Shown piece after piece: positions 1 through 42,812 of a stretch of DNA of 64,000 nucleotides (position 1 is the stretch's first letter; each line of letters starts with the position of its first letter). Made by a program: the position numbers and the translations under genes. The DNA comes from Flavobacteriales bacterium (GTDB lineage: Bacteria > Bacteroidota > Bacteroidia > Flavobacteriales_F > PHOS-HE28). The stretch covers positions 4,472 through 68,471 of the forward strand of contig JAHBUL010000014.1 of assembly GCA_019638085.1 (NCBI GenBank), written 5' to 3'. The notes under the pieces were generated by a model that saw nothing but the letters and a program-made list of their open reading frames with translations, was not told the origin of the DNA and searched no databases.

Positions 1-1832
1 GCAGAGGTCACACTATAGGTGAAGCTGCCGTCCGCGTCCGTAGCCGGGTTGAATGTGCCGGACATCCCGGTACCGTTGGCGGTAGTCCAACTCCCTCCCG
101 GTGTAGGAGTGCCGCCCAACATATCGATCAAGGCAAAGGAGGGCTGCGTGGGGCAGATGACGATGGAGGAATCCGCCCCTGGATCCGGTCCCGCATCAAA
201 GGTTATGGTTACACTATCGGTCACCGCGCAGTCTGCAAATCCTGCCGGATGCACCGTCACGAAGTATTCGGTCGTGGTGTCCACGGTGGCCACAGGTGAC
301 GCAATGCCGGGGTTCGAGAGGCCGGTCGTCGGCGTCCATGACCACACCAGACCAGTGGCGGAACCGGTCACTCCGGCTTGCAAGGTCATGGGGTCACCAC
401 AGCTTAAAGAGTCGTTTCCTGCGTTCACCACCAAGGCTGCGCCATCCACCACGGTGAAGGTGTCCACAGCGGTGCAACCCAGATCATCCTCCACGACGAT
501 GGAGTATGATCCTGCACAAATGCCGCTGGCGGTGGTGGCTGCAGTTCCCGCCAACGAATTGCTCCATGCATAACTGAACGGTGCCGCTCCACCGCTCACC
601 GTAACGGCGGCCGTGCCATTGCATGCGGAAGGGCAGATCGTCGCCACGGTGGTCACGTTAGCGGTCATCGTGTTATCCACCACGGGTATGGTCAGTATCA
701 GCGAGCTGGACTGGCCACACAGGTCCGGGTAGGTAAAGGTCAGTACAAGCTGTTCCGTCCCTTCAGACAAGAAATCCTCAAAGGCATCAATGTCGAAGGT
801 GATGGTTGATTGACCGACAGGAAAACTGAATATGGCCGGAACGGCAGTATGGTCCGTGCCGTTCGTGGTGGACCCCCCAACGGAAACCGCGACATCCATC
901 GTGGTCTGGGTATCGGAGCGGGTGAGTGTGAGCGTAGCTCCGGCACATCCTTCAACGAGTTGGCCTAAAGGGCTCTCCGTTTCAGCCTCCACGGTCAATG
1001 GATTCGGGCTGCTGAAGCTCCCCCCTTCCAAGAAGACACCACTATCCAATATGGGATCACCCGCATCGGCTATGGCGATCTTCAGGTGATAGGTCTGCCC
1101 GCACTGTACCGTGGCAAAAGCCGTTAAGGGCACCGTGAAGCCATCGAACTGGATATACTGTGGGTCACTGTTCCATGGAAAGCTAAAGCCGTCCCCGTTA
1201 TCCACATAATAGGCGGCGTTGCTGGTGGTGTTCACGTTATCGATGGCCACTGGCGTACTGGTGCCCGGGATCAGCGCGATGTTCATGGCGTTGTTCATGT
1301 ACGGACCGGTGATCCCAGGACCGCTGAGAAAGAAGCCGAACACATCATTGTATCCCGCGTTCACGAACTCCAAATATTCCTCCGAAGCGAAAACGTAGTT
1401 GAACGAGATCTCATCCCCCGAGGGCACCAGATCGAACTCCAGAACGGCCCCGTCAAACGTGAACGCACTGCTGATCTGGTCCAGATCGAAATCGCCGGGA
1501 CCACCGATCCCGGCCCCCGGCAGTGTTGCGCCATCCGACGTGTTGGGGCCCAATGCCACTGCGATATCGCCAGTACTGAGCAAGAGCCCTTGTGCGAGGC
1601 CCGCGTTGGATCCCACACCATTGAAGCTGCCGATCTGCATGTTGGAAAAACCGGCAGGCTGACCATTGAACGTGATGTTGCTCACGGTAACGCCCCCGCC
1701 CAGCAGCACATTTTCCACAAGGTATTGGACCGACACGGTATTATTAACCGTCAACTGCGCCTGTACCAGGGTTGAAAGACCGTACAGGAGGAACAAGGGG
1801 AGGATCCTACAAAGGGAAATACGGGGTCGCAT
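1..1832 (-). CDS. Large secreted cell-surface protein with SprB-type Ig-like repeats; only the N-terminal 610 codons are in the window and the gene continues beyond position 1
   Basis: Hand translation of the minus strand from ATG at 1832 gives a signal peptide (MRPRISLCRILPLFLLYGLSTLVQAQ) followed by an open frame. A checked segment near 541-660 reads NVTTVATICPSACNGTAAVTVSGGAAPFSYAWSN, a SprB repeat. No stop codon occurs before the window edge, which explains why it is missing from the ORF track. The plus-strand ORFs 19-573 etc. are shadows of it. Confidence 0.6.
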   Translation of the reverse strand, partial: MRPRISLCRILPLFLLYGLSTLVQAQLTVNNTVSVQYLVENVLLGGGVTVSNITFNGQPAGFSNMQIGSFNGVGSNAGLAQGLLLSTGDIAVALGPNTSDGATLPGAGIGGPGDFDLDQISSAFTFDGAVLEFDLVPSGDEISFNYVFASEEYLEFVNAGYNDVFGFFLSGPGITGPYMNNAMNIALIPGTSTPVAIDNVNTTSNAAYYVDNGDGFSFPWNSDPQYIQFDGFTVPLTAFATVQCGQTYHLKIAIADAGDPILDSGVFLEGGSFSSPNPLTVEAETESPLGQLVEGCAGATLTLTRSDTQTTMDVAVSVGGSTTNGTDHTAVPAIFSFPVGQSTITFDIDAFEDFLSEGTEQLVLTFTYPDLCGQSSSLILTIPVVDNTMTANVTTVATICPSACNGTAAVTVSGGAAPFSYAWSNSLAGTAATTASGICAGSYSIVVEDDLGCTAVDTFTVVDGAALVVNAGNDSLSCGDPMTLQAGVTGSATGLVWSWTPTTGLSNPGIASPVATVDTTTEYFVTVHPAGFADCAVTDSVTITFDAGPDPGADSSIVICPTQPSFALIDMLGGTPTPGGSWTTANGTGMSGTFNPATDADGSFTYSVTS

Positions 1833-1971
1833 GGCTTCCATGTTCTGTGCAACTAGCTTCACGGATTCGAAGCCGAAGCGTGCTTATTATGGAGACCAAA
1901 CTTATTTCGTGCGGGAAGGCCGCACAATCCCACATTAGGGGGATGCCTGTGAAGAGATCCGAAACAGGCTC

Positions 1972-3048
1972 CTAGGCCATCGCTCCCACTTGGCGGAGGT
2001 ACACCAAGTGTGACCAGAGCGCACTACGCAGCGTGGGAAACTCGCGATAGCGAACGTTGAATTCCGTGCATACTTCCTTCAAGCGCTTGTTCAGCGCGGG
2101 ATAGTGGATGTGGCTCACCTTCGGGAAGAGGTGATGCTCCACTTGGAAATTCAGACCGCCGAAAAGCCAATTCCACAGCTTGTTCCCGGTAGCAAAATTG
2201 GCGGTAGTGGCCAACTGGTGGATGGCCCATTCGTTCTCGATGCTTCCACCATCCACTTTGGGATCCACGAATTCAGCATGTTCCACCACGTGCGCCAATT
2301 GGAACACCACCGCAATGAAGAGTCCGGTAACGAACACCATCACACCGTAACCCACCAAGGTGGGAACCACACCGGCGAAGAACATGGGCAATACCAGGAA
2401 CACCGATATATAAGTCACCTTGGTGACCCAGAAGATGATGTGTTCCTTCCGGCTCATCGGTTTCATGTACGTATTGTCCGCGATCTTACCGGTGAAATAC
2501 TTCTTGATATCGTTGTAGAAGATCCAGAACAAATAGGTGAGCCCGTACAGCAAGAGGCCATAGATGTGTTGGAACCGATGGAACCAATGGCGGGGCTGCC
2601 CTTCATGCACGCGCACCCATGGCTTGATGTCAATATCGTCATCCATGCCCTCCACATTGGTGAAGGTGTGATGATTCACGTTGTGCTTCATCTTCCAGAA
2701 GTGAACACTTCCGCCCAAGAGATTGAGGGAGTGGCCCATCATTTCGTTCACCCACTTGTGTCGGCTATAGCTTCCATGGGCACCATCGTGCATCACGTTG
2801 AAGCCGACACTTGCGACTACAACGCCGAGCACGGCACATAGGCCCAAGGCGACAATGATGGAGGATGGCGTGAAGAAGACGAGCAGGATGTACAGGCCGA
2901 CCAAGGCCGTGAGCAGGATGGCGGTCTTCCAATACAAGCGACCATCGCCCGTTCGGCGTAGGTTGTTCTCCTTGAAATAGGCATCAGTGACCTCCCTCAA
3001 GCGAAGGAAGAATACAGGAGGGGTCTTGGCAAAAATGGGTTGAGACAT
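1972..3048 (-). CDS. Membrane fatty-acid desaturase (three histidine boxes)
   Basis: His boxes HDGAH, HNVNHH and QVEHHLFP, with multiple TM segments. The start is trimmed to the internal ATG (MSQPIFAKT...) at 3048 because the ORF-track N-terminus lacks desaturase features. Confidence 0.85.
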   Translation of the reverse strand: MSQPIFAKTPPVFFLRLREVTDAYFKENNLRRTGDGRLYWKTAILLTALVGLYILLVFFTPSSIIVALGLCAVLGVVVASVGFNVMHDGAHGSYSRHKWVNEMMGHSLNLLGGSVHFWKMKHNVNHHTFTNVEGMDDDIDIKPWVRVHEGQPRHWFHRFQHIYGLLLYGLTYLFWIFYNDIKKYFTGKIADNTYMKPMSRKEHIIFWVTKVTYISVFLVLPMFFAGVVPTLVGYGVMVFVTGLFIAVVFQLAHVVEHAEFVDPKVDGGSIENEWAIHQLATTANFATGNKLWNWLFGGLNFQVEHHLFPKVSHIHYPALNKRLKEVCTEFNVRYREFPTLRSALWSHLVYLRQVGAMA

Positions 3049-3301
3049 GGAATGGTCCGGAAGGGGAAGGGATATGCGGTAAAGGTACAAAGCCTGACAG
3101 CCCATTTCGCGTGTTACGGGGTATTGTTGGCAGTTCATGGCTCGGGCACTGAAAGAACAGCCCTCCAACAAATCTCACAGGGGCACTTGCAAATTCGCTG
3201 GATCCCACTAATTTCGCCCCGCTTTGGGCCGAATGTTCTTTGGCGAGAAACTTCAGCTGGGCAAAAACCTCAAAAAAACACTCACTCAGTCAGTCGAACT
3301 C

Positions 3302-3700
3302 ATGAACATTTACGTCGCCAACATTGCGTACTCAGTACAGGACCAGGACCTCCGCGAGCTTTTCGAAGCTCATGGCGAGGTGACCTCGGCCAAGATCATC
3401 ATGGACAAAGCCACCAACAGGAGCCGCGGCTTCGGTTTCGTGGAGATGTCCGACGACGATAGCGGACGTGCCGCGATCGAAGCGACCAACGGCAGCGCGT
3501 TCCATGGCCGTGACCTCGTTGTGAACGAAGCCCGTCCCCGCACCGAAGGTGCTGGCGACCGTGGTGGATACCGTGGTGGAAACGACGGCGGTGGCGGTGG
3601 ATATCGCGGTGGTGGCGATCGCGGTGGATACCGTGGTGGCAGCGACCGCGGTGGCAGCGACCGCGGAGATCGTGGCGGATACCGTCGCGACGAATACTAA
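3302..3700 (+). CDS. RRM-type RNA-binding protein with a C-terminal RGG/glycine-rich tail
   Basis: RNP-1 motif RGFGFVEM and RNP-2 NIYVANIAYSV. The C-terminus carries GGYRGG/DRGG repeats. Start is at the ATG at 3302 (MNIYVAN...). Confidence 0.85.
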   Translation: MNIYVANIAYSVQDQDLRELFEAHGEVTSAKIIMDKATNRSRGFGFVEMSDDDSGRAAIEATNGSAFHGRDLVVNEARPRTEGAGDRGGYRGGNDGGGGGYRGGGDRGGYRGGSDRGGSDRGDRGGYRRDEY

Positions 3701-3723
3701 GAAAGAACCTACTTTGCATCGAA

Positions 3724-3751
3724 AGCCCTCTGGTATGCCAGGGGGCTTTTT
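3724..3751 (+). terminator. Rho-independent terminator after the RRM gene
   Basis: GC hairpin gccctctgg/ccagggggc immediately followed by TTTTT, 24 nt after the stop. Confidence 0.5.
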
Positions 3752-3870
3752 CGTTGGTCAAGTACCCGAACGCCTTAGCACCTTCACCTGTGATCGCTGG
3801 CCAAAAAACGGTAATGTCACAGGCTGTGTCCGAGTTGCCGATGGCAAGTCCGGGTACCTTTGCGGCCCTC

Positions 3871-6360
3871 ATGCAGATCCGTGTTATTCTACTCTTGTTG
3901 TGTGCTTTGACCTCCGTCCAACTATTGGCCCAACGTGGTCCGGGCGGGTCCAGGTCCAACGGTCAAGTGTATGGTCGGTTGGTGGACGAAAACCGGAAGC
4001 CCGTCCCCTTCGCCAGTGTCAGCATCTTGCTGGGCGATAGTCTTGTAGGAGGCGCCTTGGTGAAGGAGAACGGTGATTTCGATGTACCAAGCCTTCCACT
4101 GGGCACCTTGCACCTGCGCATAGCAGCATTGGGCTATACCACGTTGGAGCAGGACTTCACCCTTACGCGCGAAACCCCCAGTCGCGATATGGGCAATCTG
4201 CATATTGCAGCGGATGCGGTGGTTCTCCAAGCGGCCGAGGTCACGAAGGAGCGTGCCACACAGGTGCTACAGGTGGACCGTAGGGTGTACAATGTGGAGA
4301 AGGACATCAGCATAGCGGGCGGCGATGCAACGGATGTGATGAAGAACATTCCGGGCCTGAGCGTGGATGTGGAAGGCAACGTGGAAATGCGCGGCAAGAG
4401 CCCGATCATTTATGTGGACGGACGGCCGACCACCCTGACGCTGGACCAGATACCCGCCTCAGACATCGAACGCGTGGAGGTGATCACCAATCCCAGTGTG
4501 ATCTTCGACGCGAGCTCCACGGGTGGTATTGTGAACGTGGTGATGAAGAAGACCGTGCGGCCCGGATACAGTGGACAACTTCAGGTGGGTCTGGGTACGG
4601 ACGAACGGTACAATGCGAGCGGCAGCCTACTGATGCGCCAAGGCCGTAGCTCCTTCAATCTCAGCCTCGGCTTTGGCCATGGCTCTCCTTTGGGTTCGGG
4701 GTACAGCAATCGGACAGACCTGGCGGACGGCATGCCGACGGGTTATTTCTTGCAGGACAATACCCGGACCAATGGACGCCTGCGCCAGAATGTACGAATG
4801 AGCTGGGACTATAAGCTGAACGTCCGCAATACGATCAGTCTCATGCAAGGCGTGTATTTCGGTGGTCGCAGTAGCATCGAAGACCAGACCTTCCAGAGCC
4901 TGGATGCAGCTCGGAACCTCATTGGCTCAGGCACTCAGCACAACACCACGGACGGGCATTATGCCAGCTATACCACGCGCGCAGGCTTCATGCGTACGAC
5001 CACTAAGCCCGGCAAGGAATGGAGCACGGATCTCACGTTGAACATCAGCGACCGCGCCTCCCCCTTCACCACCGAGCAGTTCAGCCAAGGAAGCGACATG
5101 ATCTTTCCCGGGCGTAGCTACCAGACGCGTGATGCCAAAGGGAACGATCAGGAATGGACGTGGCAAGCGGACGTATCGGATGCGTATGCCGACAACCGGA
5201 AGCTCGAGTGGGGTTTCAAGGCCAACTACGAGCAGAGCCGCTCCAGCATGGATGTGTCCTTCACGAACGATTCGATGCCCAATTTTCTGCGCGATACGTT
5301 GCTCAGTAATGCCTACCTGATCCAGACCTACGTGAATGCAGCCTATGTGAACTGGAGTGCGAAGCTCACATCGCATTGGTCGCTGCAAACCGGTCTGCGG
5401 TTTGAGCAGAACATCATGGATGCCGAACGCACCGACCGGGGGACTTCCTTCAGCTACAACTACCCCGACGGCTTGGGCGATCTGGGCCGCGTTCTTTTTC
5501 CCGCACTTTACCTGAGTCATAAATGGGATGCGCCGGATGGTAAGCTGCAACGCGAGCTACAGTTCAACGTTTCCCGTAAGGTCAGCCGGCCGAACCATTA
5601 CCAGATGATGCCTTTCATCATGTCCACCGATGCCCGGAGCTATCGGATCGGCAACCCGCTACTACTGCCGGAGATGAGCACCATTTTGGAGGTGAACCAC
5701 CTGCTACCCTTTGGCGATAAGGGCAATTGGCTTTCGTCCCTTTACGGCCGTTTCACCACGGACGTGATCACCAGCTACACCACACCGTTGGAAACCGACC
5801 CGAACATCCTGCTTTCCACGTACGTCAACGGTGATATGAACCAAGGCTTCGGCTGGGAGAATACGGTGAAGCTCACCCTGTGGGAAGGCTTGGAGGCTAC
5901 GGTGAACGGGAACATCCAATGGGTGCAGATCGGCCTTACGCAAAATGGGTCGCCATACACCAACACCGGTACCAACTTCGATGGTAAGGTGAACCTATCC
6001 CAGAAGCTGCCGAAGGGATTCTCGGTACAGGTGAACGCCGACTACACCGGGCCACGCGTGATCCCACAGGGACATACACTGGAGCGCTATTCCTTGGACA
6101 TCTCCGCACGGAAGGAATTGAGCAAAAGCATTTTCCTAACGGCTAGTGCAAACAACATTTTCGATTCGCGGGGCTGGGGTTCCTATACGGAGACGCCCTA
6201 CTTCACGCAGGAGAGCTACCGGAGTTGGGGGAACCGATCCTTCCGTATCTCGGCCACGTGGCGCTTCGGTAAACCGGATGCGCAGTTGTTCCGCAAAAAA
6301 TCCGGACCCATGGAACGCAGTGTGCCGAGCACTAGCGGCGGTGATGGTGGGGGGGAGTGA
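3871..6360 (+). CDS. Outer-membrane beta-barrel protein with an N-terminal carboxypeptidase-regulatory-like domain (TonB-dependent-receptor-like; OMP_b-brl_3 type)
   Basis: Signal peptide MQIRVILLLLCALTSVQLLAQ. A CarbopepD_reg-like stretch (GQVYGRLVDENRKPVPFASVSILL) is followed by a long beta-strand-rich region ending in an aromatic residue. Start is at the ATG at 3871. Confidence 0.7.
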   Translation: MQIRVILLLLCALTSVQLLAQRGPGGSRSNGQVYGRLVDENRKPVPFASVSILLGDSLVGGALVKENGDFDVPSLPLGTLHLRIAALGYTTLEQDFTLTRETPSRDMGNLHIAADAVVLQAAEVTKERATQVLQVDRRVYNVEKDISIAGGDATDVMKNIPGLSVDVEGNVEMRGKSPIIYVDGRPTTLTLDQIPASDIERVEVITNPSVIFDASSTGGIVNVVMKKTVRPGYSGQLQVGLGTDERYNASGSLLMRQGRSSFNLSLGFGHGSPLGSGYSNRTDLADGMPTGYFLQDNTRTNGRLRQNVRMSWDYKLNVRNTISLMQGVYFGGRSSIEDQTFQSLDAARNLIGSGTQHNTTDGHYASYTTRAGFMRTTTKPGKEWSTDLTLNISDRASPFTTEQFSQGSDMIFPGRSYQTRDAKGNDQEWTWQADVSDAYADNRKLEWGFKANYEQSRSSMDVSFTNDSMPNFLRDTLLSNAYLIQTYVNAAYVNWSAKLTSHWSLQTGLRFEQNIMDAERTDRGTSFSYNYPDGLGDLGRVLFPALYLSHKWDAPDGKLQRELQFNVSRKVSRPNHYQMMPFIMSTDARSYRIGNPLLLPEMSTILEVNHLLPFGDKGNWLSSLYGRFTTDVITSYTTPLETDPNILLSTYVNGDMNQGFGWENTVKLTLWEGLEATVNGNIQWVQIGLTQNGSPYTNTGTNFDGKVNLSQKLPKGFSVQVNADYTGPRVIPQGHTLERYSLDISARKELSKSIFLTASANNIFDSRGWGSYTETPYFTQESYRSWGNRSFRISATWRFGKPDAQLFRKKSGPMERSVPSTSGGDGGGE

Positions 6361-35034: not shown

Positions 35035-35205
35035 CCAGCGTTTCGTTCGGCATTTGGTCCGTTGTGGCAAGGGCTTGAGGATGGGGCCGTTCATTGTTTT
35101 CCATCCCCAAGCCTCGAAGCCTCTCACGGCCTGGAGTAACGCCCCCTTCTCCCAAGGAAAAGGGAAGGGGATGAGAGCGGTAGCCCCCAATTAGGACAGC
35201 CCTGA

Positions 35206-35234
35206 AAACTGACAACGAACAACTGACAACTGCC
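35206..35234 (-). repeat. Inverted copy of the same repeat family, ending 5 nt before the engB ATG
   Basis: The plus strand reads aaactgacaacgaacaactgacaactgcc, the reverse complement of GGCAGTTGTCAGTTGTTCGTTGTCAGTTT. Confidence 0.5.
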
Positions 35235-35859: not shown

Positions 35860-35866
35860 GGCGTAG

Positions 35867-35896
35867 TTGTCAGTTGCCGGTTGTCCGTTGTCAGGC
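35867..35896 (+). repeat. Repeat-family copy 8 nt after the engB stop
   Basis: gttgtcagttgccggttgtccgttgtcagg. Confidence 0.5.
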
Positions 35897-36085
35897 GTTC
35901 TTGGCCAGTTTCCGAACGCTTTTCAATTCCTCTCATCCAGCTGAGCCGGTCCACGCTTGAAGCCCGGATCCAGCGAGGTAGGCGCTTGCAGTGTCCAGCT
36001 TACAACCAGCATCACCTATGCCCCAGGGGTGTTGAAAGCACAGTGACCTGTGTTGGCCATTGGGCCCGAAGTCGGACCTGGCAAT

Positions 36086-36107
36086 GGACAACCGGCACCG
36101 GACAACT
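36086..36107 (-). repeat. Repeat-family copy immediately 3' of gldC in the sense orientation of gldC
   Basis: The minus strand reads AGTTGTCCGGTGCCGGTTGTCC and abuts the gldC stop. Confidence 0.45.
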
Positions 36108-36441
36108 ATTTCTTCAGCTCCGGCAACATGTGCTCCGCGAAGTACGCTGCAAAATCCCGCATTTGCGCCGCCATCTTGTCCTCGCCAGTGGCCCGTTCGA
36201 AGGTATCGGCAAGCGTGAGGAAGTTCTGGTGAAAGAACGCCTTCATTTCGTCCGTGGTCATCTCCTTGGTCCACAGGTCGATGCGCATGGTGTTGAGCTC
36301 ATTCGCATCCCATAAGGAAAGCAACATGGCCTTGCTCACACCCAGGGATTCGGCATCCTCGGCCTCCCATTCAATGCGCTCGGGCACTTTGTTCTCATCC
36401 AGTTGCACGTGGATGCGGATCTCGGAAACTTTCTTGCTCAT
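36106..36441 (-). CDS. gldC: Gliding motility protein GldC
   Basis: MSKKVSEIRIHVQLDENKVPERIEWEAEDAE... matches the GldC N-terminal signature. The ~111-aa protein lies directly downstream of gldB, as in Flavobacterium johnsoniae. Start is at the ATG at 36441. Confidence 0.75.
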   Translation of the reverse strand: MSKKVSEIRIHVQLDENKVPERIEWEAEDAESLGVSKAMLLSLWDANELNTMRIDLWTKEMTTDEMKAFFHQNFLTLADTFERATGEDKMAAQMRDFAAYFAEHMLPELKK

Positions 36442-37524: not shown

Positions 37525-38238
37525 ATGAAGAAGGTCTACGTTACGCTCCTCGCCCTATTGTTCGGGGCCTCACATCTTTTCGCCCAAAGCGACAACTCTG
37601 TCCGTATGGGCATCAAACTCGCCCCGAACCTGGCATGGGTGCGCTCGGATACGAAAGGCTTGGAGAGCGATGGTACGATAGTCGGCTATAGCTTCGGCCT
37701 GATGATGGAGTTCCCGTTCGGTGCGAATGGAAACTATCGTTTTGCATCGGGCCTGTTCTTGAACAACATCGGGGGCAAGTCCACCTATTCCACCGCCACC
37801 CCAGCTGATACTACCGGACTGACGGCGAACATTTTGAGGAACTCAACAGTGAATCTGCGATACATTGAAGTACCGGTCACCATGAAGATGATGACGAATG
37901 AGATAGGGTACATGCGCTATTATGGCCAGCTCGGAGTAGACCTAGGGGTGAATATTCGCGCGAAATCCGATGCGGAAACGGTGACCACCACTGGTGGGTC
38001 CGTCCGTTCAACGACCGAGGATGACATCGATGTGAAGGAATCGGTGAATGCCTTCAAGGCGGGGCTGGTGATCGGTGGCGGATTGGAGTTCAACTTCAGC
38101 GGCAGCACGTCCGCCGTGGCAGGGATCACCTACCACAGTGGCTTCACTAACCTGTTCAAGAAGGACTCCTTCAACGGAGTGGACAATGCGAAGACGTTTG
38201 CCGACTACATCGAACTGACCTTAGGCGTATTCTTCTGA
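37525..38238 (+). CDS. Small outer-membrane beta-barrel protein (porin/PorT-like OMP_b-brl family)
   Basis: Signal peptide MKKVYVTLLALLFGASHLFAQ followed by ~215 aa of alternating beta-strand pattern ending in LTLGVFF, with an aromatic final residue. Confidence 0.65.
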   Translation: MKKVYVTLLALLFGASHLFAQSDNSVRMGIKLAPNLAWVRSDTKGLESDGTIVGYSFGLMMEFPFGANGNYRFASGLFLNNIGGKSTYSTATPADTTGLTANILRNSTVNLRYIEVPVTMKMMTNEIGYMRYYGQLGVDLGVNIRAKSDAETVTTTGGSVRSTTEDDIDVKESVNAFKAGLVIGGGLEFNFSGSTSAVAGITYHSGFTNLFKKDSFNGVDNAKTFADYIELTLGVFF

Positions 38239-38255
38239 CCTACTTTGGTATTGAA

Positions 38256-38298
38256 AGCCCCGCTCCTGATCGAACAGCCGGAGCGGGGCTTTTCTTTG
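38256..38298 (+). terminator. Rho-independent terminator
   Basis: An 11-bp perfect stem, agccccgctcc...ggagcggggct, followed by TTTTCTTTG, 18 nt after the stop. Confidence 0.65.
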
Positions 38299-38336
38299 CA
38301 CCGCGCCTTGGCCCACTATGCTTCGGCGAACAAAGC

Positions 38337-39137
38337 ATGTTGAACCTCGAAGGAACCATAGCGCACATCACCAACTGGCTACGGGAGTATTGCGTGGCGA
38401 ACAGGCAGCAAGGCTTCGTCCTCGGTATCAGCGGCGGCATCGATAGCGCCATCACCAGTACACTATGCGCTCGAACGGGTTTGCCTTTACTCTGTGTGGA
38501 GATGCCGATCCACCAGCACGCCTCCCACGAGGGCAGGGCGCAGGACCACATTGCTTGGCTGCTCGAACGTCATCCCAACGTCAGGACCGAGCGCGTGCAG
38601 CTCACGCAGGTATTCGACACCCTGGTGAATGAGCTTCCGATCCAGCAGGAAACTGCTGGGCGCTCCCTCGCCCTGGCCAATACCCGCGCGCGTTTGCGGA
38701 TGACCACCTTATACTACCTCGCCGGCATTCACCGCTACCTGGTAGCCGGCACGGGCAACAAGATCGAGGACTTCGGGGTGGGCTTCTACACCAAGTATGG
38801 CGATGGCGGCGTGGACCTTTCGCCCATTGCCGATCTCACCAAGACCGAGGTCTTCGCCATAGCGCAGGAACTTGGCATCATTGAAAGCATTCTAGTTGCA
38901 AAACCCAGCGACGGCCTCTTCGCGGATGACCGCAGCGACGCGGATCAATTGGGAGCCAGCTACCCGGAACTGGAATGGGCGATGGCCTTGCGTACTTCAG
39001 GTACTTCCGTGAACGCCGATGAACTCACTGAACGCCAACGCGAGGTACTGAAGATCTACGATCGGCTGCATGCAGCGAATGCGCACAAGTGGTTGCCGAT
39101 ACCGGTGTGTATGATACCGGCGGGGTTGCGGATGTGA
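38337..39137 (+). CDS. nadE: NH3-dependent NAD+ synthetase
   Basis: PP-loop SGGIDS, a 266-aa NadE-type length, and a C-terminus typical of the family. Confidence 0.9.
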   Translation: MLNLEGTIAHITNWLREYCVANRQQGFVLGISGGIDSAITSTLCARTGLPLLCVEMPIHQHASHEGRAQDHIAWLLERHPNVRTERVQLTQVFDTLVNELPIQQETAGRSLALANTRARLRMTTLYYLAGIHRYLVAGTGNKIEDFGVGFYTKYGDGGVDLSPIADLTKTEVFAIAQELGIIESILVAKPSDGLFADDRSDADQLGASYPELEWAMALRTSGTSVNADELTERQREVLKIYDRLHAANAHKWLPIPVCMIPAGLRM

Positions 39138-39296
39138 AGTTCCGCCGGGTGATCCGGACTTCGCTGCTCTTATCGTAAAAGAGATCGGCGAGGTCTTGCT
39201 CTGGCAGTGCCATTTAAGACGTGTTCTTCACAAGGTAGTAGTCGTTCGCCTCTCTCAAGTATCCATCCGCCGACTGGAGGTCGATGGGCCTTGAGC

Positions 39297-39347
39297 TCAC
39301 ACGATCGTCCACACGTTCTACCCGCGCAGTAGCGCATCGAGGTCGCC
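39297..39347 (-). pseudogene. Degenerate 51-bp duplicate of the korB 3' end (47/51 identical to 39719-39769) carrying an in-frame stop
   Basis: Copy A reads tcacacgatcgtccacacgttctacccgcgcagtagcgcatcgaggtcgcc and copy B reads tcacgcgatcgtccacacgttctccccgcggagcagcgcatcgaggtcgcc. Copy A translates to GDLDALLRG*NVWTIV*. Confidence 0.6.
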
Positions 39348-39368
39348 ATAGAATTACTCATGGATACA

Positions 39369-39734
39369 TCAAGGCATCGGTAATCCGAGTCTCATCAACA
39401 AGATCATTCCCAAACCTGCGATCAGCAATTCGATCAAAAGCCCCGCAACGGCAAGTATCAGCAGAAGCACGTTACCCCACGCCTTAGCACGCGCATGGAC
39501 CACCCCATGGAAAGCAGTGATTCCAATCGAGAAGGTCACCACCGCTAAAACGGTCAACATGAAAAACACGGCAGGCAGTAGCCGCCAGCGCATGTTCTGG
39601 AACGGAATGGCAAATAAGCCTATGGCACTGACTATGAAGACTGATACACAGATCGCGACATTTAAAGAAAATATCAACCATAATGGCTTAGAAAAGCACC
39701 ATCGAAGGGCTCTCTTCATCACGCGATCGTCCAC
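39369..39734 (-). CDS. Hypothetical small membrane protein (4 predicted TM helices) on a lower-GC insert between the direct repeats
   Basis: A 121-aa hydrophobic ORF whose local GC is clearly lower than its surroundings. An alternative start exists at 39719. No recognisable family. Confidence 0.4.
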   Translation of the reverse strand: MDDRVMKRALRWCFSKPLWLIFSLNVAICVSVFIVSAIGLFAIPFQNMRWRLLPAVFFMLTVLAVVTFSIGITAFHGVVHARAKAWGNVLLLILAVAGLLIELLIAGLGMILLMRLGLPMP

Positions 39735-40753
39735 ACGTTCTCCCCGCGGAGCAGCGCATCGAGGTCGCCCTCACCTTTCTTCTGCTTGGCCAGCGCTACT
39801 TGGGCGTTCATCTTCGTTTCGTGCGTGTGGCGGTCGTTCACGTAGAACACGCCGAAGGGCCGGGGTAGCGCATCCTTCTCACGCGGATCATCGAAGAGGC
39901 GGACAAGAATACTGGCCTTGAAGGAGTCGCGCTCATCGTGGATCCAAAGGTCATCCGCAGCTGCTTCACCTGCTGCCAGGTCGACCACCACGGGCGTCAT
40001 ACCATCCAGCTTGATGCCTTTGGTACCGTTACCAAAGAGCAGGGGCTTGCCGTGTTCCACGAAGACGGTGTGTGCGGCTTTGCTCGCTTTCTCGGTGAAT
40101 ATCTCGAAAGCGCCGTCGTTGAAAACATTGCAGTTCTGGTAGATCTCCAGCAGGCTGGTCCCGCGATGGGCGTCGGCACGCAACAGCATCTCACGCAAGT
40201 GCTTCGGGTCACGGTCCATGCCGCGGGCTATGAAAGTGGCATCGGCGCCCTTGCACAGGGCGAGCGGATTGAACGGATGGTCCGTACTGCCCATCGGTGT
40301 GCTTTTCGAGATCGCGCCCTCCGGTGAGGTAGGCGAGTACTGGCCCTTGGTGAGGCCATAGATCTCGTTGTTGAAGAGCAACACGTTGAGGTCCACGTTG
40401 CGGCGCAACATGTGGATCAGGTGGTTGCCGCCGATGCTGAGCGAATCGCCGTCGCCGGTGATCAACCATACGCTGAGGTCGGGCTGCACGCTGCGCATGC
40501 CGCTGGCGATCGCCGGTGCGCGGCCATGGATGCTGTGCATGCCGAACGTGTCCAAGTAGTACGGGAAGCGGGACGAGCAGCCGATGCCGCTGATGAAGAC
40601 GATCTCTTCCTTCGCGCGACCGTGTACCGCAAGCACGCTCTCTACTTGTTTCAGGATGGAATAATCGCCACAGCCGGGACACCAGCGCACTTGCTGGTCG
40701 CTGCTGTAGTCGATCTTTTTCGGCGCCGGGGCCGCTGGTTGCAGAGTGCTCAT
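39719..40753 (-). CDS. korB: 2-oxoglutarate:ferredoxin oxidoreductase beta subunit (TPP-binding)
   Basis: CPGCGD Cys motif and TPP motif GDGD...N. It overlaps korA by 4 nt. Confidence 0.9.
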   Translation of the reverse strand: MSTLQPAAPAPKKIDYSSDQQVRWCPGCGDYSILKQVESVLAVHGRAKEEIVFISGIGCSSRFPYYLDTFGMHSIHGRAPAIASGMRSVQPDLSVWLITGDGDSLSIGGNHLIHMLRRNVDLNVLLFNNEIYGLTKGQYSPTSPEGAISKSTPMGSTDHPFNPLALCKGADATFIARGMDRDPKHLREMLLRADAHRGTSLLEIYQNCNVFNDGAFEIFTEKASKAAHTVFVEHGKPLLFGNGTKGIKLDGMTPVVVDLAAGEAAADDLWIHDERDSFKASILVRLFDDPREKDALPRPFGVFYVNDRHTHETKMNAQVALAKQKKGEGDLDALLRGENVWTIA

Positions 40754-42636
40754 TTCTTCAACAGGTTCAAAGCGGCCACACGGATCTCCTCGGCAGTGAA
40801 GGGCATGCCTTGCACCTTGTTCAAGCCTTGTGCATCCACGAGGTATTCAGCGCGCATCAACTGGCGCAATTGGCCACTGTTCATTTCGGGCACCAGCACT
40901 TTATCATACTTCTTCAGCAAGCCGCGCAAGCCATTATTGAACGGGAACATGTGCCGCAAGTGTACATGCGCCACGCTGTGCCCTTCCTGCTGCAACTCCA
41001 ACGCGGCAGTACGAATGGCACCGTAGGTGGATCCCCAGCCGACGATCAGCAGGTCACCTGTTCCGGGACCGCTGTCCAAGCGGATCGGGCGATAGGTATC
41101 GGCGATGCGCTGTACCTTCTCAGCGCGCAACTTCACCATCAGTTCGTGGTTCTGCGGGTCGTAGCTGATGTTGCCCGTTTTGTCTTCCTTTTCGATGCCG
41201 CCAATGCGATGTTGCAAGCCCTTCATGCCGGGCACTGCCCACGGACGCACGCCGCGTTCATCGCGGGCGTATGGCATAAAGGCCTCGGCATCCTCCGTTT
41301 CGCGTGGTTTAGCGTACGGCGGTGTGATCGGGCGTAGATCCTTTGCTTCCGGAAAGCGCCATGGCTCCGCACCGTTGGCGATGTATCCATCGCTGAGCAG
41401 GATCACCGGCGTCATGTGTTCCACGGCCAGCTTCACGGCTTCGTACACCATCTCGAAGCAATCGGTGGGGCTGCTCGCAGCGATCACGGGTATCGGAGCC
41501 TCACCGTTGCGGCCGAAGATCGCTTGCCAGAGATCGGCCTGTTCCGTTTTAGTAGGCAGCCCGGTGCTGGGGCCACCACGCTGTACGTTCACCACCACCA
41601 GCGGGATCTCCAGCATGAACGCCAGTCCGAGCGCTTCGCCTTTCAATGCGATACCGGGTCCGCTGCTGGCCGTAGCGCCAAGCGCACCACCATAGCTGGC
41701 ACCGATGGCCGAGCAGATGGCAGCGATCTCGTCCTCAGCTTGGAAGGTCTTCACGCCGAAATGCTTGTTACGGGATAGCTCATGCAGAATATCGCTCGCC
41801 GGTGTGATGGGGTAGCTACCGTAGAACAGCTCCAGCCCGGCTTTCTGAGCTGCAGCGATGAGACCGATGGCGATCCCTTGGTTGCCGGTGATGTTGCGGT
41901 AATTACCCTTGGGCATCGGTGCGGGCTTCACCTCGTACCGGGTGGTGAACGTCTCGCTGGTGTCCCCGTAGTTATAGCCCGCCTGCAGCACTTTCAGGTT
42001 CGCTTCCAACAGCTCCGGCTTGTTCTTGAACTTCGCTTCCAGGAATTTCTTCGTGCGTTCCAACGATCGGCTGTACATCCAGTTGATGAAACCGAGCACG
42101 AACATGTTCTTGCTGCGGTCCTTCTCCTTCATGCCGAGGGAAGTGCCTTCCAGTGCGAGCCGCGTCAGCTTGGTGATGTCCACCGTGTGCAGGACGTAGT
42201 TGTCCAGCGAGCCATCCGTCAACGGGTTCTCCTCATCGGGATAGCCTGCGAGCCGCAGGTTCTTCGGATCGAAACCGTCACTGTTGGCAATGATGGTGCC
42301 GCCATGCTTGAGCTTTGCGAGGTTGGATCTCAGGGCAGCCGAGTTCATCACCACCAGCACGTCACAGACATCACCGGGGGTGAAAACGTCCACGCTGCCG
42401 AAGTGCAATTGGTAGCCGCTTACGCCAGCAAGTGTTCCCTGCGGTGCGCGGATCTCCGCCGGGTAGTTCGGAAAAGTGCTCACATCGTTGCCGAAGAGTG
42501 CGTTGGTGTCGGTGAATTGGGTTCCAGTGAGCTGAATGCCGTCACCGCTGTCCCCGGCGAAGAGGATCACCACTTTCTCGCGGGCCTCAATGACCTTCGG
42601 ACGGGGTGTAGGTATCGTGTCCATAATTGGGTGCAA
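40750..42636 (-). CDS. korA: 2-oxoglutarate:ferredoxin oxidoreductase alpha subunit
   Basis: A 628-aa protein with a KorA/PorA-type fused gamma-alpha architecture (GDSGDGIQ...; ...AICSAIGASYGGALGATASSGPG). Confidence 0.9.
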   Translation of the reverse strand: MHPIMDTIPTPRPKVIEAREKVVILFAGDSGDGIQLTGTQFTDTNALFGNDVSTFPNYPAEIRAPQGTLAGVSGYQLHFGSVDVFTPGDVCDVLVVMNSAALRSNLAKLKHGGTIIANSDGFDPKNLRLAGYPDEENPLTDGSLDNYVLHTVDITKLTRLALEGTSLGMKEKDRSKNMFVLGFINWMYSRSLERTKKFLEAKFKNKPELLEANLKVLQAGYNYGDTSETFTTRYEVKPAPMPKGNYRNITGNQGIAIGLIAAAQKAGLELFYGSYPITPASDILHELSRNKHFGVKTFQAEDEIAAICSAIGASYGGALGATASSGPGIALKGEALGLAFMLEIPLVVVNVQRGGPSTGLPTKTEQADLWQAIFGRNGEAPIPVIAASSPTDCFEMVYEAVKLAVEHMTPVILLSDGYIANGAEPWRFPEAKDLRPITPPYAKPRETEDAEAFMPYARDERGVRPWAVPGMKGLQHRIGGIEKEDKTGNISYDPQNHELMVKLRAEKVQRIADTYRPIRLDSGPGTGDLLIVGWGSTYGAIRTAALELQQEGHSVAHVHLRHMFPFNNGLRGLLKKYDKVLVPEMNSGQLRQLMRAEYLVDAQGLNKVQGMPFTAEEIRVAALNLLKK

Positions 42637-42812
42637 AGGTACGGGGCCCTTGTCGCGCTCTCCTGATGTGGATCAGTTCGGCCGTGGGCGTGCATCTCCC
42701 ATTGCCATGGTACGGCGCTGTTCGGTGCTTCCGGGTACTGCCAGCAGCTGCGACCCTCCCGGCCCTTACGCAGCCGCCGCCTTACTTTGTCCGCTCGCTT
42801 TCTCTCAAGGAC

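Follow-up and report, generated by a model that had tools for sequence, protein, structure and literature searches.

A duplicated korB 3' end flanks a small orphan open reading frame in one Flavobacteriales species

Genomic islands and prophages that occupy the 3' ends of genes carry a replacement 3' end in attP. In the model for Rhs tips, incoming DNA with a homologous anchor displaces the 3' end of the resident gene (Jackson et al., 2009, PMC2935791), and the same process has been modelled for T6SS effector-immunity arrays (Kirchberger et al., 2017, PMC5361080). The mechanisms proposed for these loci are homologous recombination with circular intermediates and homology-facilitated illegitimate recombination (PMC2935791, PMC5361080). 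In E. coli, a single crossover of circles with truncated homology generates duplications of 109-950 bp that flank the insert (Amarir-Bouhram et al., 2011, PMC3240628). We analyzed a stretch of 64,000 nucleotides (the window) from one Flavobacteriales species in which the end of korB adjoins an orphan gene for a small membrane protein, and we compared its arrangement (Table 1) with those of the known systems.

Table 1. Coordinates of the features at the korB end
Feature	Position	Strand	Description
korA	40750..42624	-	POR/POR_N domains; 4-nt overlap with korB
korB	39719..40753	-	2-oxoacid:ferredoxin oxidoreductase beta subunit; 344 aa, intact; from the ORF list
F51, repeat copy 1	39719..39769	-	Functional last 16 codons of korB plus TGA, GDLDALLRGENVWTIA*
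Orphan ORF	39369..39719	-	116 aa plus stop; three predicted hydrophobic helices
Spacer	39348..39368	-	21 nt, from the ORF stop codon to the second korB tail
psi51, repeat copy 2	39297..39347	-	Putatively displaced, decaying korB tail, GDLDALLRG*NVWTIV*
Gap, psi51 to nadE stop	39138..39296	.	159 nt; putative DUF433 relic on the plus strand
nadE (NAD synthase)	38337..39137	+	Convergent with korB; bounds the variable gap on its right-hand side

The korB product matches Pfam TPP_enzyme_C (1.7e-26), and the exact protein is held at NCBI as MBX2983485.1 under the name 2-oxoacid:ferredoxin oxidoreductase subunit beta. NadE matches Pfam NAD_synthase (2.8e-45). For korA we chose the ATG at 42624 as the start codon, which gives a product of 624 aa. 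Among lineages that share the korB / nadE-OMP-gldB synteny, the nearest are L082/L094, L110, and L112; amino acid identity with L112 is 93% for korA and 77% for nadE.

The original prediction described a repeat of the last 51 nt of korB with four mismatches and an acquired in-frame stop codon, and we found it as described: the two copies align without gaps at 47 of 51 positions, and psi51 carries a GAG to TAG change in frame. The copies are separated by 371 nt (422 nt from start to start). The chance of at least 47 matches in 51 is 1.2e-23 per pair, so that about 2e-14 such pairs would be expected in the 64-kb window, and the repeat remains significant in a direct alignment. No other long repeat of high identity occurs in the window except a low-complexity Gly/Arg-coding array. 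Its boundaries are sharp at both ends, and one of them falls exactly at the korB stop codon. Local alignments of the 30-60 nt on either side revealed no significant homology beyond the 51 nt (p 0.08-0.98), and a GCCC(T/A)TCGA match that follows both stop codons was set aside as chance level. When the korB tails of 13 relatives were compared with their own downstream DNA, the best scores were only 22-30 of 51, and the repeat was not found in relatives independently of the insert.

The two copies have fared differently. In gene orientation the four mismatches are G/A, C/G, G/T, and C/T. Three changes are private to psi51, namely CTA, TAG, and GTG (synonymous, nonsense, and missense A to V, respectively), and one further SNP occurs in psi51 in a conspecific assembly. 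F51 has a single derived change, a synonymous CTC at a codon where psi51 retains the ancestral CTG and all relatives have CTG or TTG. Decay is thus restricted to psi51, and the F51 copy is functional. We interpret psi51 as the displaced korB tail, a decaying "fossil" copy of the end of a functional gene, and the interval that it occupies should be annotated as a korB pseudogene fragment. Once the private changes are removed the copies are 1-2 nt apart, which indicates that the tails of donor and recipient hardly differed when the event took place.

The DNA between the copies has a different character. Its GC content is 47.7%, compared with a window mean of 57.6%; this value ranks among the lowest 1.1% for windows of 371 nt and bears out the AT-richness noted earlier. 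Its codon usage is atypical as well: GC3 is 0.58 (2nd percentile), and the codon adaptation index (CAI) is 0.42, which is 5 SD lower than that of the genes in the window (0.68 +/- 0.05). Nothing similar to the insert was found elsewhere in the 64-kb window or among 0.79 Mb of sequence from related loci.

These properties bear on a local origin of the insert, in which a tandem duplication or a template switch at the korB end would have made the second tail and the genome's own DNA between the tails would have evolved into a new ORF. The near-identity of the tails at the time of the event would fit an intragenomic source, and the first ~35 nt past each stop codon are marginally alike, and also marginally like the DNA downstream of korB in L082 (p 0.045-0.08). 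Against this, a duplication that continued past the stop codon should have diverged about as much as psi51, by roughly 8-16%, and not by ~40%. The insert has no significant similarity to the sequence downstream of psi51 (Smith-Waterman score 10 for the adjacent 371 nt, compared with 10.3 +/- 1.3 in shuffles) or to any other part of the window, and its GC content differs widely from that of local intergenic and genic DNA. We rejected a tandem duplication because the insert is unlike the downstream 371 nt, and the same comparison fails to uphold the suggestion of a duplication-seeded new gene; we regard a local origin as improbable. A comparison of the intergenic flanks with those of relatives, which could tell which copy is in situ, was not significant, with marginal values in restricted tests (p 0.045-0.16).

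We also considered whether the duplication is false. The sequence probably comes from a metagenome-assembled genome, and assemblers can be misled by conserved gene ends. However, the same structure is present in 12 independent assemblies from different samples, at 99.6-99.8% identity; these come from different runs and assemblers and agree base for base apart from scattered SNPs, and the two copies differ consistently at the same four positions. An assembly artefact or chimera therefore has a negligible probability, and the shared structure likewise argues against a recent event. No empty site was found (0 of 12 conspecific assemblies), and neither of the two KorB products predicted from excision occurs among 15 billion proteins. 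The insertion appears to be old, judging by the three private changes in psi51 and by the fixation of the structure in the 12 assemblies.

Comparison of the region between korB and nadE showed that both the ORF and the second korB tail are missing from L082/L094, L110, and L112 (23-26 of 51 at best), these insert-free lineages being other species and not an isogenic empty site. In their place the gap holds a DUF433/DUF5615 toxin-antitoxin pair, and across lineages the gap after korB contains differing cargo, including toxin-antitoxin pairs and an ECF-sigma/TonB_C module. The toxin-antitoxin pair diverges between L112 and L110 at about the rate of its flanks and so looks ancestral; we rejected it as mobile cargo because divergence in step with the flanks is not cassette-like. 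A different signal is seen in L110. Over 2981 nt of korAB it is 99.97% identical to L109, but from ~5 nt past the korB stop codon it is 99-100% identical to L082, although the korB genes of L110 and L082 are only ~82% alike. Recombination breakpoints at the korB end thus occur elsewhere in the clade.

Part of the ancestral content may persist in the present genome. A tblastn search matched the plus strand at ~39130-39237 to the C-terminal half of the DUF433 antitoxin (30.6% identity across 36 aa, with E 0.003 for a small search space; p = 0.013 in a six-frame shuffle test), and the strand and order are those expected from relatives; Pfam does not recognize the segment. These data weakly suggest that the gap holds a relic of the DUF433 antitoxin gene that is found there in relatives. 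The minus strand of the gap was also considered as a RAYT-like N-terminal remnant (9 of 19 identities to an ORF downstream of korB in L002, pairwise E 1e-3), but neither sequence had a hit in Pfam or NCBIfam. The RAYT-like reading was set aside in favor of the DUF433 relic on the opposite strand, which is itself weak.

The insert carries a single minus-strand ORF without a family match. The start codon lies exactly at the insert boundary, and the ORF extends from the first base of the insert to 21 nt short of its end. The 121-aa ORF of the original prediction exists only if a GTG inside korB is taken as the start; from the ATG at 39719 the product is 116 aa, which is the call made by NCBI (P0122) and the product annotated by PGAP, and other gene callers choose Met43 or a later start. 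In place of the four transmembrane segments claimed, three hydrophobic helices are predicted. The product has a GRAVY value of 1.42, and its AlphaFold2 single-sequence model (pLDDT 68.5) places helices at residues 11-37, 43-77, and 82-110. The absence of a recognizable family was upheld, with no significant match in Pfam (best E 0.26), NCBIfam (best E 5.8), or PHROGs and PADLOC (no hits). A tblastn search against plasmids and phages returned nothing usable, and the best Foldseek match in the PDB had an E value of 2.0, from a model of pLDDT 68. In searches that covered 5.8 billion proteins, 1.84 billion HMMER-scored representatives, JGI metagenomes, IMG/VR, phages, and plasmids, the only matches were the ORF's own copy in conspecific assemblies. 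The 116-aa ORF should remain annotated as a "hypothetical protein."

The position of the ORF suggests how it could be expressed. Its ATG and the korB stop codon share one base (TGATG), an overlap that places the ORF for co-transcription with korAB and for stop-start-coupled translation. The case for expression or selection is thin: the population has only two SNPs in the ORF, the CAI is low, and the gene callers disagree on the start. The ORF may be a young or newly captured gene that was added to the korAB operon by one 3'-end displacement, is expressed by stop-start coupling, and is selected in one species, a possibility that we regard as less likely than not. A wider version of this captured-gene reading, based on the lineage-varying cargo and on the L110 breakpoint, is that the conserved korB tail may be a recurrent recombination anchor in the clade. 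The ORF could also have originated de novo from imported non-genic DNA.

Alternatively, the insert may be a neutral repair scar, in which recombination or repair, by the same or a similar mechanism, captured 371 bp of filler or junk DNA and the T-rich, 116-codon frame is fortuitous and encodes no functional protein. Consistent with this, the ORF has no homologues at all, its CAI is very low and its GC3 low, the gene callers differ on its start, and the insert can be read through without a stop in an antisense frame as well. When the insert was shuffled, 2.9% of the shuffles contained an open frame of 116 codons or more; this low frequency is a coding signal, but a fortuitous frame of this length is not overwhelmingly improbable. 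T-rich sequence readily encodes helix-like hydrophobic stretches. The population SNPs are uninformative about selection, there being only two, one synonymous and one L to V. Other features fit a fortuitous frame less well: the frame fills the insert to within 21 nt of its end, with its ATG exactly on the korB stop codon, and it has stayed intact while the adjacent psi51 gained three changes, including a stop, within its 51 nt. Further coding signals are the PGAP call, the presence of T at 52% of second codon positions, and a GC content that differs by codon position (0.48/0.40/0.58; chi-square p = 0.015), the order GC3 > GC1 > GC2 being as expected if the ORF were a gene of this genome. On balance we consider a neutral scar with a meaningless frame doubtful.

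The original prediction proposed that foreign DNA had inserted at the end of korB in an att-like manner. A lineage-specific insertion of atypical DNA is borne out, but the site-specific part of the claim is not. An integrative element, as a remnant or in miniature, would make the two copies attL and attR at the korB 3' end, with most of the element deleted later or with a cassette that was mobilized in trans. An intact gene with a replacement 3' end, followed by cargo and a displaced native 3' end, is indeed the architecture of 3'-end islands, and different lineages have different cargo after korB. However, the cargo is only 371 bp. No integrase, transposase, excisionase, other recombinase, or reverse transcriptase family is present in the annotation of the flanking genes up to 10 kb to each side; the ends of the insert match as inverted repeats at 14 of 38 positions, which is chance level; no inverted repeats were found in the insert region; and the fold of 39130-39400 (z -0.62 relative to shuffles) shows no significant hairpin or attC-like structure. 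An Rfam search over 38000-41000 gave no match at E <= 1, and with the lack of a fold signal this led us to reject an RNA element. Moreover, the other cargos in the gap have no duplicated korB tail, the toxin-antitoxin pair looks vertically inherited, and the assemblies and protein collections contained no empty site and no excision-type KorB allele. Site-specific (att) integration at korB is therefore unlikely, and an integrative element of the kind outlined is highly improbable.

Several other kinds of element were rejected on similar grounds. A transposon with a target-site duplication does not fit, because there are no terminal inverted repeats, there is no transposase within 10 kb, and the duplication is 51 bp and not 2-15 bp. 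For a diversity-generating retroelement, no reverse transcriptase is found within 10 kb, and the mismatches between the copies extend beyond adenines and so are not adenine-specific. An integron gene cassette is excluded by the absence of an attC hairpin (z = -0.62), of an inverted repeat, and of an integrase within 10 kb.

The reading that we favor, with modest confidence, is that the locus is a fixed lineage-specific scar of homology-dependent insertion-duplication or 3'-end displacement and not a mobile element. The ancestor would have had korA-korB convergent with the DUF433/DUF5615 toxin-antitoxin pair and nadE. One homology-dependent event would then have placed a 422-bp unit at the korB end, consisting of 371 bp of atypical DNA and a second 51-bp korB tail. 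This could have been a Campbell-type single crossover, at the shared korB tail, with incoming DNA that was either a small circle or partly degraded. It could also have been homology-facilitated illegitimate recombination, a process that occurs in transformable bacteria, with one end of the incoming DNA anchored in korB and the other end joined 51 bp before the resident stop codon. Either route would leave an intact korB, then a new cistron, and then the displaced old korB tail, which, free of selection, would since have acquired the TAG stop and two other private changes. In this account the repeat and its boundaries, the decay of one copy, the orphan status of the ORF, the fixation in the population, and the absence from relatives are observed, whereas the mechanism of recombination, the direction of displacement, and the expression of the ORF are inferences.

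Some of the expected traces of such an event were not recovered. No other genome in the collections searched has korB followed by this ORF, as a donor would, and the 371 bp has no relative in any of these collections. The search for a pre-insertion allele within the species was likewise negative: when JGI metagenomes were scanned for the korB tail pattern, only two contigs were returned, both from other lineages. The event is therefore reconstructed from lineages in which KorB is only 93-95% identical. Sliding identity against eight relatives revealed no mosaic breakpoint inside korB. The missing donor, allele, and breakpoint are points against the proposed event, as is the length of the repeat, 51 bp being short for a RecA-dependent crossover.

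If the favored reading is correct, the locus shows cleanly how homology-anchored insertion has occurred in nature at a site other than a toxin locus, with the housekeeping gene intact, a new cistron in the operon, and a relative date provided by the decay of the fossil tail. It would be a useful test case for the entry of ORFans into operons and for whether expression follows. If the captured-gene reading also holds, it would be a rare, datable, and boundary-defined addition of an ORFan to a housekeeping operon. The locus reveals no new mechanism or system; the event is of an ordinary kind, and both candidate mechanisms of recombination have been documented (PMC3240628, PMC2935791, PMC5361080).

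The locus resembles the Rhs and T6SS loci in that new downstream DNA appears to have been acquired through a homologous anchor, the resident 3' end would have been pushed downstream to persist as an orphaned, non-functional fragment, and no dedicated recombinase appears to be involved. It differs from them in that the anchor is a housekeeping oxidoreductase and not a polymorphic toxin, the replaced korB tail encodes the same amino acids and so leaves KorB unchanged, a single displacement is seen and not an array, and the cargo is one orphan membrane-protein ORF and not an effector-immunity pair. It shares with 3'-end islands and prophages an intact target gene, cargo, and a direct repeat formed by the displaced native 3' end, but it has no integrase within 10 kb, its cargo is only 371 bp, and no excision polymorphism or related element was found. 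As in E. coli insertion-duplication, the topology is that of foreign DNA between direct repeats of a shared segment: the anchor gene is repeated, the insert is unrelated, one copy is decaying, and relatives have no insert. Here, unlike in the E. coli experiments, the shared segment is only 51 bp, the event would be natural and ancient, and a donor with korB adjoining the cargo was not found in any collection searched. Finally, the ORF is like other small membrane-protein ORFans in being short and hydrophobic, with atypical codons and no homologues, and in being confined to one species-level population. Unlike typical ORFans, it overlaps a central-metabolism operon in a stop-start arrangement, and the duplicated tail marks the bounds of its insertion and gives its relative age.

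The korB reading frame ends in ...GDLDALLRGENVWTIA-TGA, and its final 51 nt (F51; 16 codons plus TGA) recur downstream as a second copy (psi51). The original prediction of such a repeat, 371 bp apart with four mismatches, was borne out: the copies are identical at 47 of 51 positions in a direct, ungapped alignment, they lie 422 nt apart from start to start (371 nt between them), and about 2e-14 such pairs are expected by chance at the base composition of the window. The downstream copy also contains the predicted in-frame stop (GDLDALLRG*NVWTIV*). As an empirical control, we compared the korB tail (51 nt) at each of 13 related loci with the downstream DNA of that locus, and the best matches reached only 22–30 of 51. 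Both ends of the repeat are sharp, as alignments extended 30–60 nt past either end were no better than shuffles. This is the sole long, high-identity repeat in the 64 kb besides a Gly/Arg-coding low-complexity array.

Features of the korB locus and other elements in the window
Feature	Coordinates or extent	Strand	Remarks
Tandem array	3410-3670		Gly/Arg/Asp/Tyr-coding; six overlapping 48-nt copies
~31-nt element, three copies	35201-35231, 35864-35895, 36077-36108		rich in TTGTCAG/TTGTCCG motifs
nadE	38337-39137	convergent with korB	NAD_synthase
Possible DUF433 relic	39130-39237	+	next to nadE
ORF start in gap	39138-39213	-	FYDKSSEVRITRRN
Gap, psi51 to nadE stop codon	159 nt		between psi51 and convergent nadE
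psi51	39297-39347	-	second copy of korB tail
Spacer, ORF end to psi51	21 nt	-	spacer sequence
ORF, 116 codons	ends 39369	-	ATG shares A of korB TGA (TGATG)
Antisense frame	39370-39921	+	no start codon before 39517
F51	39719-39769	-	last 51 nt of korB
korB	39719-40753	-	TPP_enzyme_C; NCBI name 2-oxoacid:ferredoxin oxidoreductase beta subunit
korA	to 40750	-	4-nt overlap with korB
-7 motif match	42634-42641	-	TACCTTTG, 9 nt upstream of korA ATG

Other elements were also seen. The tandem array follows a GFGFV-type motif and looks like the RGG-like tail of an RRM-type RNA-binding protein. In the spacer that separates gldC from a convergent GTPase gene, two copies of the ~31-nt element lie in inverted orientation, 88% complementary and 181 nt from each other, and the element could be a REP- or MITE-like repeat. 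The motif upstream of korA matches TAnnTTTG, the Bacteroidota -7 promoter consensus.

The ORF cluster is present on 41 contigs, and we aligned 12 independent assemblies of the population (L001, L096-L106). The order korA-korB-ORF-psi51-nadE-OMP-gldB was found in all 12, at 99.6–99.8% identity, and the four differences between F51 and psi51 are conserved across them. Because 12 independent assemblies share the structure, it is fixed and an assembly artefact is ruled out. In the conspecific contig L096 (ENA ERZ2606016, coverage 1.9x), korB is split into two ORFs and alignment to the window opens 11 gaps; assembly errors at low coverage are the most likely cause, not a real pseudogene. Recombination between the copies is predicted to yield a KorB ending ...TIV or truncated at ...LLRG, and neither, in either of two KorB backgrounds, occurs among 15 billion proteins. 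We infer that, if the insert were deleted by a crossover within the repeat's first 27 nt, korB would acquire the TAG and lose its conserved tail, which may favor retention of the insert.

The insert carries a minus-strand frame that runs from its first base to 21 nt short of its end. The length of 121 aa proposed earlier requires a GTG start inside korB; the NCBI pipeline annotates 116 aa (P0122, its version of the product; MBX2983484.1, "hypothetical protein," Flavobacteriales MAG), and other gene callers start at Met43 or later. In place of the four transmembrane segments proposed, the product (GRAVY 1.42) has three hydrophobic segments, and single-sequence AlphaFold2 modeling predicts three long helices (11-37, 43-77, and 82-110; mean pLDDT 68.5). 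These features favor coding, as do the extent of the frame, the rarity of open frames reaching 116 codons or more in shuffles of the insert (2.9%), the heterogeneous GC content by codon position (0.48/0.40/0.58; p = 0.015), and the presence of T at 52% of second positions. Codon usage is atypical (CAI 0.42, vs 0.68 +/- 0.05 among long ORFs of the window; GC3 0.58, the 2nd percentile of gene windows), and a young or foreign gene and a non-gene would both fit this. The low CAI and GC3 and the sparse SNPs (two within the ORF across the population, one synonymous and one L->V) argue either against coding or for a young or foreign gene. The antisense frame, which is stop-free over the whole insert into the korB tail and has no family matches, is probably a shadow of the minus-strand ORF.

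The ORF was rightly described as having no recognizable family: Pfam, NCBIfam, PHROGs, and PADLOC gave nothing, and Foldseek of the model against the PDB gave nothing below E = 2. Its sole match, both among 5.8 billion clustered proteins and in an exhaustive HMMER scoring of 1.84 billion representatives, was the same ORF in conspecific assemblies. No relatives were found in JGI metagenome contigs or IMG/VR, or by tblastn against plasmids and phages, and an Rfam scan of the region was empty. At the DNA level, the insert had no match in the rest of the window or across 0.79 Mb of related loci.

We compared the nadE-korB region across relatives. The closest lineages (L082/L094 and L112, KorB 93–95% identical) and the recombinant locus L110 (KorB 84%) share the nadE, OMP, and gldB synteny of the window's right side; their korB-nadE gap contains neither the ORF nor a second korB tail but a DUF433/DUF5615 (PIN-like) toxin-antitoxin pair. 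Between L112 and L110 the divergence of this pair is similar to that of korAB and nadE, and the pair is therefore probably ancestral to the group. In L107/L108 the gap holds a TonB_C/ECF-sigma module, and relatives with ~85% KorB identity have unrelated genes after korB (YqeY/FtsZ, P-type ATPase, and others). The DNA immediately after korB varies among L082/L094, L110, L112, L107/L108, L109/L111, L084, and L090 (DUF433/DUF5615 pair, DUF2281/PIN pair, TonB_C/ECF-sigma module, YqeY/FtsZ, or P-type ATPase), and synteny breaks recurrently at the korB 3' end in related Flavobacteriales lineages.

L110 appears to have a recombination breakpoint at the korB end. Its korAB (499-3479) is 99.97% identical to that of L109 over 2981 nt, and from ~5 nt after the korB stop (3480-4226), across the toxin-antitoxin pair and into nadE, it matches L082 at 99–100% identity; the L110 and L082 korB genes are only ~82% identical. 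No more than 15 identical bases are common to the two parents at the joint, which would not suffice for a k-mer assembly chimera, and L110 looks like a genuine exchange. The left boundary of its recombinant block lies in the nifU-korA spacer; lineages seem to swap the korAB operon as a unit. In the region upstream of korA (42625-42700), the window differs from L112, L109, and L110: homology to L112 begins ~22 nt before the korA ATG, and acid phosphatase, Dtd, and MazG genes replace the relatives' mrp-nifU.

Directly past the nadE stop, a plus-strand frame shows similarity to the relatives' DUF433 protein at residues 37-72 (36 aa at 30.6% identity; p = 0.013 by six-frame shuffling), with the strand and order expected from the relatives. 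Because Pfam does not detect it, we treat it as only suggestive of a relic of the C-terminal half of the antitoxin gene; if it is real, psi51 and the 159-nt gap are the old resident locus. An ORF start in the same gap has weak similarity to a 77-aa ORF that follows korB in the related locus L002 (FFDDEDETVRTRRNLPHW; 3778-4011), which is flanked by REP-like palindromes (gtcaccg...cggtgac; hairpins near 3610-3633 and 4078-4100) and which we take to resemble the N terminus of a REP-associated tyrosine transposase. No Pfam or NCBIfam model matched either.

Comparison with the korB tails of relatives shows three changes private to psi51 (CTG->CTA, GAG->TAG, and GCG or GGG->GTG); where F51 has CTC, psi51 keeps the CTG of all relatives. 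Without the private changes the copies are 1–2 nt apart; the tails were therefore almost identical at the time of the event, and so the korB-homologous part came either from this genome itself or from a very close relative. With three neutral changes in 51 nt, against ~0.3–0.5% diversity among present strains, the event long predates the common ancestor of the population.

The original interpretation is partly supported: the evidence favors an insertion restricted to this lineage and made by recombination at the end of korB, but not att-like site-specific insertion or local duplication. No recombinase or transposase family was found within 10 kb on either side, and there are no terminal inverted repeats, which disfavors a site-specific element or a transposon with target-site duplication. 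An integron cassette is disfavored by the lack of a recombinase in the same interval and of a hairpin or other significant structure, and a DGR by mismatches that are not adenine-specific. A tandem duplication that later diverged is disfavored because the insert has no similarity to the downstream DNA. Homology-dependent insertion remains, and two routes can be proposed; no donor was found. A small circular or partly degraded molecule carrying the korB tail and 371 bp could have integrated by a single crossover; such events in E. coli gave 109–950 bp duplications flanking the insert (PMC3240628). Alternatively, homology-facilitated illegitimate recombination could have joined the non-homologous end 51 bp before the resident stop. 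By either route, one repeat boundary would fall exactly at the stop codon because homology between two korB-bearing molecules ends there. The second route corresponds to "3'-end displacement," which has been put forward as a model for Rhs tips and for T6SS effector-immunity arrays (PMC2935791, PMC5361080). The structure is a recombination scar of a known kind, unusual only in having a housekeeping anchor gene and a coupled ORF that is a complete orphan.
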